This document shows positions 1,462 through 6,996 of a DNA stretch of 6,996 bases, in pieces. Source of the DNA: a virus (taxonomy: Duplodnaviria > Heunggongvirae > Uroviricota > Caudoviricetes); IMG/VR virus record IMGVR_UViG_2531839468_000016; one strand, 5' to 3'. Positions within the stretch are counted from its first letter, which is position 1; every line of letters starts with the position of its first letter. A model generated the notes under the pieces. The model had not been told where the DNA came from. It did no database searches and saw only the letters and a list, made by a program, of their open reading frames with translations. The position numbers and the translations under genes are program-made.

Positions 1462-1537
1462 TGGCTCCTCTGACTGGACTCGAACCAGTGACATACGGAT
1501 TAACAGTCCGCCGTTCTACCGACTGAACTACAGAGGA
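1462..1537 (-). tRNA. asnT: tRNA-Asn (anticodon GUU)
   Basis: Reverse complement of 1462..1537 is TCCTCTGTAGTTCAGTCGGTAGAACGGCGGACTGTTAATCCGTATGTCACTGGTTCGAGTCCAGTCAGAGGAGCCA: 76 nt, cloverleaf-compatible, anticodon loop CU-GUU-AA, encoded CCA. It matches E. coli tRNA-Asn as I remember it. The symbol asnT is inferred from adjacency to mtfA, because E. coli has several identical asn tRNA genes. Confidence 0.93.
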
Positions 1538-1637: not shown

Positions 1638-2435
1638 TTAATGAACATTCGTCGCCGAAAACGAGTCTGTATCATTAGTGCGATGCAGTCTCTGCAAAGG
1701 ATCTTGTTGATAAAATTGGCAGAAACGTTGCCACAATGAAGGGAAACGAGGAGCAAAAAGTTCTGGGGCGCTAAAGAAATATTCAGAAAGTACGGCAAAA
1801 CATTCAGCAGGATCACTGGCAGCATAAGCATCAATGCTCGCCGCATTCTCGCCAACCAATTCGATTTCTTCCTGAATGTTGTTCATTGCAGCATGAAGAT
1901 CGTGTTCCCAGCCAGCAACCTCACGCAACGGAATAAAGGGAACTCCGCTGGCGCGATCGCCGTTACGGGTGTCCAGCTTATGAGCGACTTCATGAATAAT
2001 CAGGTTAAAACCAGAAGCATCAAAAGAATCTTGTATATCCAACCAGTTCAAAACGATAGGCCCTTGCTGCCAGCTCTGACCTGACTGAACAATACGTTGG
2101 TTATGCACCAGACCGATATCGTCTTCCCATTCATCATCGACCACAAATGGCGCAGGATAAATTAAGACTTCATGAAAACCATCCAGCCATTCCAGTCCTA
2201 ACTCCAGAACGGGTAGGCAAAATAGAAGTGCTATCCGGCAGCTTCTTAATGAATCCAGTTCAAAGCCCTGTAAAGGAACAAGCCGCTTTTGCTGTAAAAA
2301 ACGTTCGGCAAGAGTGACTAATTTGCTTTGTTCCTGTTCCGTCAGACACGTTAAAAGGGGGATCGATAGTGCTTCCTGCCAGGGAAGGGCAGTTTGATGT
2401 GCTGATTCTTGTACTTTCCAGGGCCACTTAATCAT
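1638..2435 (-). CDS. mtfA: MtfA (Mlc titration factor A; zinc-dependent peptidase family), 265 aa
   Basis: Translation [28 protein letters not shown]...[10 protein letters not shown]...SFSATNVH matches E. coli MtfA/YeeI as I remember it, including the HEVAH metalloprotease motif. The start is set at ATG 2433-2435 (MIKWPWK) rather than the track's upstream in-frame start at 2474. Confidence 0.9.
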
Positions 2436-2484
2436 CGTTTTGCTCGCAAACTCGTCACTTGAACAAAATTGCACGGACAGGGAC

Positions 2485-2618: not shown

Positions 2619-2700
2619 AAATTCAATCACTTATACATCATTAAGTCAGTGACAAAAATCACACTTGGAATTACTTGGAATATTTTCTTGGAATATTTTC
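2590..2700. other. Predicted prophage attL (core overlapping the tRNA-Ser 3' end, plus P'-arm region)
   Basis: Lambda-family integrase gene whose 3' end points at the tRNA 3' end, with tandem arm-type repeats 45-80 bp from the tRNA 3' end. This is the lambda attL (B-O-P') geometry, where P' arm sites lie about +55 to +85 from the core and overlap the int 3' end. Exact core limits need the attR end, which is not in the window. Confidence 0.4.
2664..2699. repeat. Direct repeats CTTGGAAT(ATTTT) x3, candidate integrase arm-type binding sites
   Basis: Perfect tandem 13-mers cttggaatatttt at 2674-2686 and 2687-2699, plus a partial copy cttggaatta at 2664-2673. They overlap the last codons and stop codon of int (...NIPRKYSK*). 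Confidence 0.5.
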
Positions 2701-3696
2701 AGGTAACGGGACATCAAGTGTCGGTGAAACTTTAACCTTCCTGTCATAGATTAGCACTTGCCCCTCGGTTTTGTGACCAGAGAAAAGTTGCTTATCCCGA
2801 CTGCTTCCTTCATAGTCTGAAATTCCTTTCGCCTTCAGATCATGAAAGGTGAAGTCGGTTAAAATACCTGAAATTTTGCCTGCGCGATTTCTTGCTTCTA
2901 CCCACATTTCGTTAAAGCCTTTGTACATATATCGGTTGCCGTATTGATTGCTGATTACATAGGCGGATGTTGGTAACTGTTTTGCTTTTTCGATCGCCGC
3001 CTGTAATCGTGGACTCCATGCTTTTATCTGTTTTTTTCCTGTTTTCCCTTGCTGGATAAAGATCCCGTCGTTTCCAATCTGCTCCCATTTCAGCGATAAC
3101 ACATCGGAAACCCTCGCTGCACACAGATAGGCAATTTCCATTGCGATAAAAACAGGAAGAGGTGCAACGCTTAATACTGCCTGGTATTCTTTGTCGGTTA
3201 CATATCGTTCGCGGTTTTTGGCCTTGAATTTACTTACACCTGCACATGGGTTACCCTTCACGTACCCTCGCTCATACCCCCAACTGTAAACGCGGGACAT
3301 ACTGCTTTTTTCATGGTTGGCTTGCGTTTTACTCTGCTCCCCTCTCTTGTCCATGTATCGACGGATGTGTTCTGGTTTTATGGAATCTGCCGGCACCTTA
3401 CCGAATACGGCAAGCAACTTTTTTTGATGTTGCAGATAATCTTTTTGTGTTCTTGGACTGAGGTCACTGTAATAGGCGCTGGCGAGGAATTTTTCCCACA
3501 AGCGACCGAATGTCATTGCACGATCGCGATTATTTACAGTTTCCTCATACTTTTTCCATAAAGCAGCTAAACCATCCTTGATGGCGGTTAGTGTTACAGA
3601 TTCTCTGGATGTTGGTTTCCATACATAACTATATTTATTTGGGTATACATTTGGAGGTAATTTTTCGTGTTCAGGATTTTTCCTTCGTCTTCCCAT
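2671..3696 (-). CDS. int: Phage integrase, lambda-family tyrosine recombinase, 341 aa
   Basis: N-terminus MGRRRKNPEHEKLPPNVY resembles the lambda Int arm-binding N-terminus (MGRRRSHERRDLPPNLY). C-terminal catalytic region aligns to lambda Int: ARVSDV (Arg I), GKTGKK (Lys), TFHDLK (HxxR box, with Lys in place of Arg), GHK (His), LIY (catalytic Tyr at 2746-2748). Confidence 0.9.
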   Translation of the reverse strand: MGRRRKNPEHEKLPPNVYPNKYSYVWKPTSRESVTLTAIKDGLAALWKKYEETVNNRDRAMTFGRLWEKFLASAYYSDLSPRTQKDYLQHQKKLLAVFGKVPADSIKPEHIRRYMDKRGEQSKTQANHEKSSMSRVYSWGYERGYVKGNPCAGVSKFKAKNRERYVTDKEYQAVLSVAPLPVFIAMEIAYLCAARVSDVLSLKWEQIGNDGIFIQQGKTGKKQIKAWSPRLQAAIEKAKQLPTSAYVISNQYGNRYMYKGFNEMWVEARNRAGKISGILTDFTFHDLKAKGISDYEGSSRDKQLFSGHKTEGQVLIYDRKVKVSPTLDVPLPENIPRKYSK

Positions 3697-3899
3697 CAGA
3701 TCGCACCAAAATTCGGCTCTACCTCGCGTGGTGGTAAAGTTTTATTGCAGGTAAATAGCTCCCGGCTGACAATCGGTTTGCCACTACGATTGGTATAGAA
3801 CGGAAGCCCGTTTTCCATTAACCATTTTCGCTGGTGGCTTGCATATTTGCAGCCCGTTAATATTAGCAATTCATCTTCGGTTAAAAATAAGCTGCTCAT
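3696..3899 (-). CDS. xis: Putative excisionase (Xis-like small DNA-binding protein), 67 aa
   Basis: A 67-aa ORF immediately upstream of int on the same strand. Its stop overlaps the int start by 1 nt (minus strand TGATG at 3694-3698), the classic translationally coupled xis-int arrangement. The sequence itself is not confidently recognised. Confidence 0.6.
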   Translation of the reverse strand: MSSLFLTEDELLILTGCKYASHQRKWLMENGLPFYTNRSGKPIVSRELFTCNKTLPPREVEPNFGAI

Positions 3900-3957: not shown

Positions 3958-6429
3958 TTAAAAATCAGCCTGACTCGGGATCAGTTTTTGCCAGATAGCT
4001 GAAACGTATTTTGCCTGGTAACGGGCGTCATCAAGTGCATTATGGCGCTCACCTTCGAATGGAATAGCCGTTCTGGCATCGAAGTCTATGGCTTTCCCCA
4101 GCTCAACGATTGTGCGTACATCGCGATCGTTGTAGTAACGCCACGGGCAGGGGATCCCCTGCCGTTCGTATGAACGGCGCAAAATCGTGTTGTCGAAGTT
4201 GGCTCCATTTCCCCAGACATGAACAAAAAATTCACCGGAGTTTTCGTCGATAAATTCCCGCAATTGTAACAGTGCATCATCTAACGGGATTTCATCGGCC
4301 ATAATGGCAGATTGCGCTTCGCGTGATTGTTTAAGCCACCATTTAATGGTGTCCCGATCAATGACTCCGCCAGCAGTTTCCAGATCGATAGTCTTACTAA
4401 ATTCCGGTCCCATATCTCCGGTTTGCGGATCGAAAAATATTGCACCTATTGAGATAATCGGGGCATCGGGATTTTTTCCCATGGTTTCAAGGTCGATCAT
4501 CAGATGAATCCCCGCTCTGCTGGTGGATGTGAGATTATGATGACCGTTCGCCTTAATTAAGGGATCTGACGCCTCGCCAGTTTCACTATCGCTGGCATGA
4601 TGCTGATTGCCGCCAGTGTTCTCCTTGTGCTGATGCGCAGTGCCTTCCATTTCCTCCGGATCATTTTCCTGAACTTCAGGCTGATTCTCTCCATCGAATA
4701 TTTCCTGGTATGTTGCGTCACCCATCACCGCACCACAATCAGGGCAGTTGCCGCCACCGCTCTGACCGCAGGCGGTGCAGATCTTTTCCGGTTCCTGTTG
4801 CACTACTGGTTCAGGTTGTTTCGTTTCTGGCTCGTTTTGTAACGCATTTGGGCTGTTTTGTTCCGCTTTTTGGTAGTTCCGTTCCGATTCATGCTGGTTC
4901 TGGTTTACAGAATCGCGGGTCTGGATCCCCTTAACCCATTTCGGATCATTCGGGTCGCTGATCCCTGCAACAAATTCTCCGCGAGAGGCAGCAAGCAACT
5001 TATCGGCGTCAGGCTGGCTGATATTGGCTGCCTGCATAATTTTGTTTACTTCGTCAGCGGTAACTTTTACCGGCTCTGGTTGTGCGGTCGTGTCAGATGC
5101 ACCAGTATTTTGTTGTGAACCTGAGTATGTACCGTTTTTGCGGGCGAAATATTCTTCTTTCGTGATTTCAGTAGCCCCGGCAGCCAGTGCCTTATCCAGA
5201 CCAGAAAGTTTGTTTGCGCGACCGTATTTTTCGCCATCCTTGTCGGTGAAGAGGAAGTAGAACGGCCCCTCACGCTCTACAGATGGTTCGACTTCCACTT
5301 TGCATTCGGTTTTTTCGTTGTCCGGAATTGCCGTTTCCACTGCATCAGTTTCTGGTACTGGCGACGAGAGAGTATCAGTTGCGCTCTGATTTGTTCCTTC
5401 ATCTTCAAACACGCCCTTTGTAGTCAGGTATTCAGTAATGTATTTGTTCAGTGCCACAGGGTCTTTGTGAATGTCGATCGGACGTTCACGGACAAGGCCA
5501 AAAATAGTCTGGCGGTCGTAGCGAAGGGCATCAGGCTGTTTGCGCATTGATGCCGAGATACGCTTCCAGTCTTCGCGGTAGTTGTCGATAACTTCATTTT
5601 TTGCCCAGCGATGGATGCTGCCGTCAATGTTTCCGGCATCCACATCACCAGGCCAGAGAGCGTAGGCCAGTTCGTCATCCAGTGTTTTCCATGTCTGCTT
5701 GTATTCGCGATGAATGGCAGCAATGACCAGGCTGATTTTTCCTGTTGAATTTTCAGTGTGCTGTTGATTGACTCTGGCGCGGGCGAGATCAACAACAGAC
5801 GTGTATTTTCCGGTTTCCTTGCGTTCACCTTCGCGACGTTTTTTCCAGATGCGCATCTCTGCCTGAATTTCGGGCCATTTGGCACCAGGCTTACATTTAT
5901 GCTTAACCCACCCGATGGCATGCAGCTTAAGCTCCGGATACATGGCGTTAACTTCTGGCATTTTCATCAACGCTTCAACGATATGTCCGTCGAATGTTGC
6001 CATGTCTTCCTGCAACAATTCCTGTGCGCTAATCACCATATCAACGGTGATGTTTTCACATGTGTCGAACTTAACCATGACAGCGTTCTGTACTTCAGGG
6101 GCCAGCTTGTCAAAAGTGACGTTCATCGGATCGGATTCAGTCTCAACCGGGACAAAAGAAGCAGAATCCTCATCCCAGCGGTTTTCCTGCATATATTCAG
6201 CATCCCATGAATCGAGGGCAGGGCGGGGTATGCCAGGTTTATCCTCGCAGACAATAAATTTATAAGCGCAGTCCTGAGCAGCCGGATAATGTTCCAGGAA
6301 TTGCCAGTGAAATTTTGCTCGAGCACGGCGTTCGTCGCCAGCTTCAATGGCTGTGGCTACAGCCACAGCGCCTTCTTCCCTTGTTGCCAGTTCGTCAGGA
6401 ATAGCGGCGCAAATAAAGACTTTACTCAT
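3958..6429 (-). CDS. Prophage large exonuclease, 823 aa: RecE (exonuclease VIII)-like N-terminal/linker region fused to a C-terminal DEDDh (DnaQ-like) 3'-5' exonuclease domain
   Basis: Single uninterrupted 2472-nt ORF with an SD-like GAGG upstream of the ATG at 6427-6429. The C-terminal about 185 aa (3961..4515) carry Exo I MIDLETMG, Exo II GNGANFDNTIL and Exo III HNALDDARYQ motifs. The central region has a C-x2-C-x7-C-x2-C knuckle (ICTACGQSGGGNCPDCG, 4735..4779) inside an acidic Q/E/P-rich linker, plus a block DADKLLAASRGEFVAGISDPNDPKWVKGIQTRD that I recall as characteristic of the RecE non-catalytic region. The RecE resemblance is from memory and unverified. Confidence 0.85.
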   Translation of the reverse strand: MSKVFICAAIPDELATREEGAVAVATAIEAGDERRARAKFHWQFLEHYPAAQDCAYKFIVCEDKPGIPRPALDSWDAEYMQENRWDEDSASFVPVETESDPMNVTFDKLAPEVQNAVMVKFDTCENITVDMVISAQELLQEDMATFDGHIVEALMKMPEVNAMYPELKLHAIGWVKHKCKPGAKWPEIQAEMRIWKKRREGERKETGKYTSVVDLARARVNQQHTENSTGKISLVIAAIHREYKQTWKTLDDELAYALWPGDVDAGNIDGSIHRWAKNEVIDNYREDWKRISASMRKQPDALRYDRQTIFGLVRERPIDIHKDPVALNKYITEYLTTKGVFEDEGTNQSATDTLSSPVPETDAVETAIPDNEKTECKVEVEPSVEREGPFYFLFTDKDGEKYGRANKLSGLDKALAAGATEITKEEYFARKNGTYSGSQQNTGASDTTAQPEPVKVTADEVNKIMQAANISQPDADKLLAASRGEFVAGISDPNDPKWVKGIQTRDSVNQNQHESERNYQKAEQNSPNALQNEPETKQPEPVVQQEPEKICTACGQSGGGNCPDCGAVMGDATYQEIFDGENQPEVQENDPEEMEGTAHQHKENTGGNQHHASDSETGEASDPLIKANGHHNLTSTSRAGIHLMIDLETMGKNPDAPIISIGAIFFDPQTGDMGPEFSKTIDLETAGGVIDRDTIKWWLKQSREAQSAIMADEIPLDDALLQLREFIDENSGEFFVHVWGNGANFDNTILRRSYERQGIPCPWRYYNDRDVRTIVELGKAIDFDARTAIPFEGERHNALDDARYQAKYVSAIWQKLIPSQADF

Positions 6430-6710: not shown

Positions 6711-6899
6711 TCATTGTGCACATCCTTTTGGCATCAGACGTAAACGAGCCAGCATTGAAACAATGCATATTTTATTTAATAGCTCCCGTTCTTGTTTTCT
6801 CTTGTTAATGGCATCTTCAGTAAATACTGGGTTACTGATAGTGACACCAATTTCAAAACAACCTTCAGACGTATTAACGTTTGGTAATAACGTTTTCAT
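6711..6899 (-). CDS. Hypothetical small phage protein, 62 aa (MKTLLPNVNTSEGCFEIGVTISNPVFTEDAINKRKQERELLNKICIVSMLARLRLMPKGCAQ)
   Basis: ATG at 6897-6899 preceded by a good SD (GAGGA, 7-nt spacing). Same strand as the large exonuclease, int and xis. The frame stays open upstream to the window edge (6995), so a longer product starting outside the window cannot be excluded. No recognised family. Confidence 0.4.
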   Translation of the reverse strand: MKTLLPNVNTSEGCFEIGVTISNPVFTEDAINKRKQERELLNKICIVSMLARLRLMPKGCAQ

Positions 6900-6996
6900 T
6901 ATCGCGTCCTCAACAATGAATTTTGTGATGCAGTGCCTGGTGCCTCCAGGTGACGTTAACCAGTTAACAATTAACGCCGGATACAGAGAATCCACC

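Follow-up and report, generated by a model that had tools for sequence, protein, structure and literature searches.

The integrase gene at the left end of a lambdoid prophage raises the question of what a lysine means when it stands at the position of the second catalytic arginine (Arg II) of a tyrosine recombinase. The gene lies in a stretch of viral DNA of 6,996 nucleotides (IMG/VR record IMGVR_UViG_2531839468_000016), which is referred to here in its full length as the window. A preliminary description of this DNA had offered three readings: the prophage might be impaired in excision, the integrase lineage might tolerate lysine, or the codon might be a sequencing error. The analysis upholds the tolerance of lysine in the lineage and speaks against both the impaired prophage and the error. 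Taken as a whole, the evidence makes it very probable that the window encodes a functional integrase with lysine at Arg II (a Lys-II integrase) and that Lys288 is not a lesion.

The window begins with a frameshifted remnant of an IS66-family transposase, which is spread over two plus-strand frames. The zf-IS66 domain is found in the ORF at 12–287, the DDE_Tnp_IS66 and C-terminal domains are found in the ORF at 7–1152, and the 5' end of the transposase is truncated by the window edge. This remnant occupies the spot where K-12 and Sakai have yeeJ beside asnT. The chromosomal genes asnT (1462–1537, minus strand) and mtfA (1638–2474, minus strand) follow, and serU, the gene for tRNA-Ser(CGA), was located with ARAGORN at 2529–2618 on the plus strand. 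The left end of the prophage starts after serU, and its genes all lie on the minus strand. The first is int (2671–3696), which is tail-to-tail with serU and encodes a tyrosine integrase of 341 residues with arm-binding, core-binding, and catalytic domains. Next come the genes for a 67-residue DUF4224 protein (3696–3899) and for an 823-residue protein that ends in an Rv2179c-like 3'-5' exonuclease domain (3958–6429), and then a dicB homologue (6711–6995). The same layout is seen in prophage Sp14 of E. coli O157:H7 Sakai, which lies between yodB and serU-mtfA-asnT. K-12 has the same chromosomal genes, and its site is empty. The prophage in the window is a lambdoid genome different from Sp14 that uses the same integration module. 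The recognizable part of the exonuclease is confined to its C-terminal ~180 residues, which correspond to the Rv2179c-like 3'-5' exoribonuclease domain (E = 1.4e-66); the ~640 N-terminal residues gave no Pfam match. Its gene is intact in the window and in Sakai Sp14 and is split in one GenBank "phage" record.

The integrase belongs to the tyrosine recombinase superfamily by homology (Pfam PF00589, 43.8 bits with a cut-off of 27.1). Matches to PF22022 and PF14659 cover its central domain, and PHROG 1 ("integrase") was matched with E = 1.6e-53. In NCBIfam, all matches were of the Xer type and below threshold, and none supplied the name of a specific family. Among PDB chains, phmmer related residues 1–313 to lambda Int (1z1b_A, E = 1.4e-12). 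An AlphaFold2 model built with 61 homologues had a mean pLDDT of 96, and its best PDB match was the full-length lambda Int in the same chain (E = 1.6e-16, TM 0.68, ~350 columns). The model includes an N-terminal three-strand-plus-helix element at residues 17–57. All three domains of a lambda-Int-like enzyme, namely the arm-binding, core-binding, and catalytic domains, are found in the protein.

The catalytic residues, all encoded on the minus strand, were placed by alignment with lambda Int and with homologues (phmmer, MAFFT). Arg I is R195 (AGG, 3112–3114; lambda R212), which does not vary among the homologues, and three residues past it stands D198 (Asp I; lambda D215). The lysine of the catalytic beta-hairpin is K218 (3043–3045; lambda K235), which lies between strands 211–215 and 222–226 of the AlphaFold2 model. 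Box II, usually HxxR, is H285-D286-L287-K288 (2833–2844). His III is H308 (2773–2775; lambda H333), and the nucleophile Y317 (2746–2748; lambda Y342), nine residues past His III, is a tyrosine in all 122 aligned sequences. R195, K218, H285, and K288 are 100% conserved in the Lys-clade alignments. The preliminary description had listed Arg I, the lysine, both histidines, and the tyrosine as present, and all of them proved to be in register with lambda Int. Of the superfamily's catalytic residues, Arg II is the one that is replaced. By homology and fold, the protein stands as a tyrosine recombinase of the lambda-Int heterobivalent type, in the form of a Lys-II variant; Arg II is near-invariant in this family and not strictly defining.

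The placement of the lysine is simple to follow in the codons. On the minus strand, cat (2844–2842) encodes H285, gat D286, ctg L287, and aag (2835–2833) K288, which confirms the substitution of the second catalytic arginine that had been described, with its codon AAG at exactly 2833–2835. The phmmer alignment pairs FTFHDLKAKG with PTFHELRSLS of lambda Int, so that K288 corresponds to lambda R311 and H285 to lambda H308. When the protein was aligned by MAFFT with relatives that carry arginine (HD[LI]RAK...), K and R shared one gap-free column. There is no arginine within 11 residues of K288. The nearest one, R300, is not conserved, and its position is occupied by Lys in ST64B and by His in mEp390. 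Because R300 varies and no arginine lies nearer, a shift of register that would recover HxxR is excluded. In the whole family, such a lysine is rare: among more than 12,000 tyrosine recombinases, the Arg II position is R in 99.1% and K in 0.5% (Gibb et al. 2010, PMC2943603, Table 1), and the preliminary description was right that the residue stands out.

The rarity in the family is accompanied by constancy in the lineage. All 120 nearest homologues (55–99% identity, MAFFT) have lysine at this position, including those from Escherichia, Salmonella, Klebsiella, Citrobacter, Dickeya, Pectobacterium, Sodalis, Hamiltonella, Gilliamella, and other genera, and in alignment A1 it is found in 61 of 61 sequences. 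An exhaustive HMMER search reached further. Among the top 150 representatives of 50%-identity clusters, at 30–62% identity to the query, the residue is K in 95 and R in 41. The consensus is HD[LI]KAKG[IV]SD in the Lys group and HD[LI]RAK[AS]xxD in the Arg group, and the two align with each other without gaps. On a neighbour-joining tree of 119 tips, computed with the K/R column left out, two K/R changes are needed, and one pure clade takes 71 of the 81 Lys sequences. Two changes of state imply one or two old substitutions followed by stable retention. The peptide pattern HD[LI]KAK[GAS][IV][ST], scanned over a collection with one genome per species, gave 401 matching stretches, 346 of which were confirmed as relatives; they span Enterobacterales, Aeromonadales, Alteromonadales, Vibrionales, Orbales, and one Pseudomonas. 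In 80 kept loci from different species, the lysine codon is AAA in 43 and AAG in 37, and the use of both means that the codon has drifted under a constant amino acid. Between the integrases of the window and Sakai Sp14, dS is 0.21 and dN is 0.011 (dN/dS 0.053).

The lysine is thus clade-wide, nearly monophyletic, and under purifying selection, and members of the clade sit at tRNA integration junctions. The multiple alignment proposed in the preliminary description finds it lineage-typical, and its suggestion that the lineage tolerates lysine is strongly supported. K288 is therefore best read, with high though not complete confidence, as a conserved signature of a large and old lineage of phage integrases, neither a defect nor a read error. 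One locus outside the usual hosts was seen in this survey: a contig attributed to the alphaproteobacterium Martelella alba (NZ_SZPQ01000070.1) has a Lys-clade int beside tRNA-Ser(CGA) and tRNA-Asn(GTT). Its arrangement is the enterobacterial serU-mtfA-asnT order, and the contig is probably enterobacterial contamination of the assembly.

Several lines of evidence indicate that integrases of this clade work. Of the 60 related loci scanned, 36 have a tRNA gene tail-to-tail with int and no more than ~200 bp from its stop codon, and the target varies by sub-lineage: Ser-CGA, Ser-TGA, Leu-TAA (in the leuZ-cysT-glyW cluster), Leu-CAA, and Cys. Insertion that recurs at several different tRNA genes implies that the enzymes are competent in catalysis. 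The Lys motif is shared by the temperate phages ST64B, mEp390, and ZF40. The mEp390 integrase, known from a deposited phage genome with an annotated attP, is 48% identical to that of the window and has HDLKAKG, as does the ZF40 integrase (50% identical), whose deposited genome comes from an "induced lysogen". ST64B excision has been measured with qPCR directed at attP (PMC12455584). For Sp14, attP PCR revealed circular DNA in a weak signal that appeared only after mitomycin C treatment and that the authors attributed to amplification by the neighbouring Sp15 (PMC2669165). A natural Lys-II integrase from another source, Pal_Y-Int_1, gave integration in 18.7% of plasmid-receiving P. putida cells; Pal_Y-Int_2, another natural variant with lysine, was unsuccessful in the IOD assay (PMC12884075).

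Two further records were considered as evidence of activity and rejected. vB_EcoM-606R7 and vB_EcoS-689R5 are records with 99% identity, and both hold the host genes mtfA, asnT, and serU. A literature search for the two names found no paper that mentions them. The records, deposited as "Escherichia phage" (ON470580.1 and ON470583.1), appear to be prophage predictions that overran the att site and not packaged genomes; one of them also has a salicylate synthetase gene.

The explanations that would take the lysine out of the active site, or make it an accident, can be weighed against these observations. One of them is a misalignment, with the true box II and its arginine elsewhere. Three independent alignments agree (phmmer with lambda Int, MAFFT with the 120 homologues, and MAFFT with the 150 representatives), none yielded the better register with a true arginine that the preliminary description had named as a possible refutation, and the spacing also fits: H-x-x-K is followed by +20 to H308 and +9 to Y317, which is close to lambda Int, where H308-R311 is followed by +22 to H333 and +9 to Y342. 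No support for such a misalignment was found, and it is highly improbable. An error of sequencing or assembly that hides a true AGG codon has the even smaller probability of a negligible case. AAG and AGG are only one transition apart, which makes the error conceivable, but at least 26 complete E. coli genomes, each sequenced independently, share the 1511-bp int region with 100% identity, and of 5426 complete E. coli genomes 1092 contain it with a coverage of at least 80%. Sakai also has AAG, and K stands in the representatives of two protein clusters, one at 99% identity with 1013 members and one at 97% with 2068. With at least 26 independent genomes identical across the codon, the error that had been suspected is excluded.

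A recent mutation that inactivated or attenuated the enzyme and locked a decaying prophage in place has more to recommend it, since Arg II is 99.1% conserved, Sp14 circles are scarce, and engineered Arg-to-Lys mutants have impaired ligation. In Cre, XerCD, and vaccinia TopIB with lysine engineered at Arg II, ligation is slow and the covalent intermediate builds up (PMC2943603). [quoted passage not shown] A recent lesion would be private to one prophage lineage, whereas the lysine is clade-wide, which refutes it as a recent mutation. It does not vary in homologues down to about 35% identity, across orders of Gammaproteobacteria; it is encoded by AAA and by AAG under a dN/dS of 0.05; and deposited phage genomes carry the same motif. 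The preliminary description had accepted that close homologues from active prophages with the same lysine would refute its view, and Sp14 and ST64B are such homologues. Excised circles of both have been detected by PCR. The proposed impairment of excision is unsupported, and a recent lesion is a very improbable account of K288.

It could also be asked whether K288 is a passive residue, with the function of Arg II supplied by an arginine relocated elsewhere, as IntDOT does for Arg I. The CTnDOT-type integrases offer the precedent (PMC8138268), and three arginines are more frequent in the Lys clade than among its Arg sisters: R112 (80% vs 16%), R143 (81% vs 22%), and R230 (83% vs 22%). None of the three is invariant, in contrast to R195, K218, H285, and K288, which are conserved at 100%, and R112 and R143 belong to the core-binding domain. 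The invariance of K288 would not be expected of a passive residue. Moreover, modelling placed a lysine at Arg II within reach of the non-bridging oxygen O1P (PMC2943603). The relocated arginine was rejected as the main explanation because the enriched arginines are not invariant; it is improbable, if somewhat less so than a recent lesion.

With a functional Lys-II integrase as the preferred reading, the history of the site can be followed in serU itself. The window serU differs from the K-12 serU at two positions, 2576 (G instead of A) and 2587 (C instead of T), which together form a compensatory G-C pair in place of an A-U pair in the stem of the variable arm. The copy of serU beside int in Sakai has exactly the same sequence as that of the window. 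Similarity to K-12 ends at the tRNA's 3' end, 2618, by direct comparison; the extension to 2634 reported by blastn was rejected as alignment overhang. At the far (yodB) end of Sakai Sp14, the 61 nucleotides from the anticodon stem to CCA, corresponding to 2558–2618 on the plus strand of the window, are repeated with the K-12-type A/T pair. As the far-end copy, the displaced host sequence, keeps this pair, the phage must have brought its own 3' part of serU (2558–2618), a functional variant that takes the place of the host's, and these 61 nucleotides form the phage-supplied core homology of the att site. We infer a crossover between 2558 and 2575, in the anticodon stem-loop region and upstream of 2576. 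By this comparison of copies, the window serU is a phage/host hybrid and the footprint of a site-specific integration. The window supplies the int-proximal junction with the hybrid serU, and the far end of its own prophage lies outside it; the 61-nt far-end duplicate is seen in Sakai Sp14.

Further elements of the module may be recognized near the junction. Two exact direct repeats, AATATTCCAAG, lie on the minus strand at 2674–2684 and 2687–2697 (pattern count; 2 matches vs 0.17 expected), and a partial third repeat, read on the plus strand as CTTGGAAT, lies at 2664–2671. Written as CTTGGAAT(A/T), the three direct repeats occupy 2664–2697 with spacings of 10 and 13 bp and overlap the end of int, both its final codons and its stop codon. 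In the window, the AATATTCCAAG repeats are 56–79 bp away from the core; the same 11-mer is found ~100 bp from the far-end copy of the core in Sakai Sp14. It is plausible that these repeats in the 3' end of int are candidate arm-type binding sites for the integrase. At the other end of the gene, the stop codon of the DUF4224 gene overlaps the start of int (ATGA). The small protein matches PF13986 (E = 1.7e-15) and PHROG 1266, "excisionase" (E = 4e-21), and a homologous small ORF stands directly upstream of Lys-clade int in 57 of 84 related loci. Asadulghani et al. considered that the Xis copy of Sp14 lacks a DNA-binding motif and is probably non-functional; the Sp14 integrase was rated intact, and its Xis doubtful (PMC2669165). 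The DUF4224 protein is a candidate excisionase, or a candidate directionality factor of an uncharacterised type.

The proposed mechanism can be put together as follows. The window encodes the intact integrase of a serU-inserted lambdoid prophage, of the type found in O157 Sakai Sp14 and EDL933 CP-933U and related to ST64B Int. Recombination would take place between the serU gene of the chromosome and a phage attP in which the 3'-terminal 61 nt of serU are copied, and the crossover would fall in the region of the anticodon stem-loop. K288 would be the ancestral, unvarying residue of a gammaproteobacterial clade, HD[LI]KAKG[IV]SD, in which it replaces Arg II. The chemistry would follow that of lambda Int: Y317 would attack the scissile phosphate, R195 and residue 288 would stabilise the transition state, and K218 would act as the general acid. 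The ammonium group of K288 is expected to give its positive charge to a non-bridging oxygen of the scissile phosphate by direct contact. Its neighbourhood (C192, G291, I/V292, and S306) may be co-adapted, in such a way that cleavage and religation remain adequate for the phage life cycle.

The residues of this neighbourhood set the Lys clade apart from its Arg-bearing relatives. At C192, three residues before Arg I, Thr is found in 35 of 37 Arg-group sequences and in lambda Int. G291 of the Lys clade stands against Ala or Ser in the Arg group, I/V292 against mostly Ala, and S306, two residues before His III, against mostly Leu. I/V292 and S306 fit an alternative packing described by Gibb et al., in which a small residue two positions ahead of His III goes together with a large hydrophobic one at the fourth position past Arg II (PMC2943603). 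These co-varying changes could be compensation for the shorter side chain, or they could be mere clade markers carried by phylogenetic hitch-hiking. A search of the literature found no discussion of co-varying residues of the Lys clade. A wider proposal, that HD[LI]KAKG[IV]SD marks an ancient, widespread, and unnamed lambda-like subfamily with a permanent Arg II-to-Lys swap and a re-packed active site, is offered tentatively and has less than an even chance of being correct.

Part of this finding is already known. The protein is the annotated integrase of Sp14 and CP-933U, and the substitution has been catalogued; what is new is the picture at the level of the clade. A literature search for a named clade of Lys-II integrases found none, only the 0.5% of Gibb 2010 and the two Pseudomonas integrases of the IOD study of 2026. 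Smyshlyaev 2021 described the catalytic pentad as "otherwise strictly preserved" and did not mention the lysine variant. In STEC, serU is a recognised prophage site, also for stx2d and stx2k phages, and the lambdoid prophages integrated at serU in E. coli include stx2d/stx2k and effector-carrying phages. Of the serU prophages, the one that was examined, Sakai Sp14, has the Lys-clade type of integrase. For annotation, this means that lysine at Arg II in this type of integrase is neither a pseudogene mark nor a sign of a grounded prophage, and calling serU prophages immobile because of it would misjudge their mobility. A clade in which the lysine is under purifying selection and has correlated neighbours is a natural counterpart to the R-to-K mutants of Cre, Flp, and TopIB. 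If the subfamily proposal is true, it would provide a natural system in which lysine replaces an arginine "as conserved as the tyrosine" without a religation defect.

The closest known system is the Sakai Sp14 integrase (ECs_2773; the same as the CP-933U integrase of EDL933), which is identical at 332 of 341 positions (97%) and keeps HDLK. It is inserted at the same site, serU, with the same order of dicB, exonuclease, DUF4224, int, serU, and mtfA, and with an identical hybrid serU. The two integrases differ by nine substitutions and a deletion of one residue, and the flanking prophage DNA is ~92% identical. The integrase of ST64B from Salmonella (Sb28) is 59% identical and carries the motif HDLKAKGISDYEG, and a small ORF likewise abuts int upstream; it differs in the other host genus and in its diverged arm-binding N-terminus. 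Lambda Int (PDB 1Z1B, 1Z1G, 1P7D, and 5J0N) shares the three domains, the N-terminal MGRRR start of the arm-binding domain, and R, D, K, H, H, and Y in register. It is only ~21% identical and has Arg311 where Lys288 stands here, and its T209, S314, A315, and L331 correspond to C192, G291, I/V292, and S306 of the Lys clade. Lambda integrates between gal and bio and not into a tRNA gene.

The other systems are similar in the residue itself. Pal_Y-Int_1 from Pseudomonas ("Y-BPP1Arm"; Integrase-On-Demand study) is a natural Lys-II integrase that is site-specific by experiment; it is assigned to another integrase class and is likened here by description only. Cre R292K, vaccinia TopIB R223K, and the XerC/D mutants have the same substitution at the same catalytic position and demonstrate that lysine there supports phosphoryl transfer. 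These engineered enzymes carry a single substitution in an active site adapted to arginine, and they have a ligation defect, whereas the lysine of the window integrase would be ancestral and is surrounded by clade-specific neighbours.
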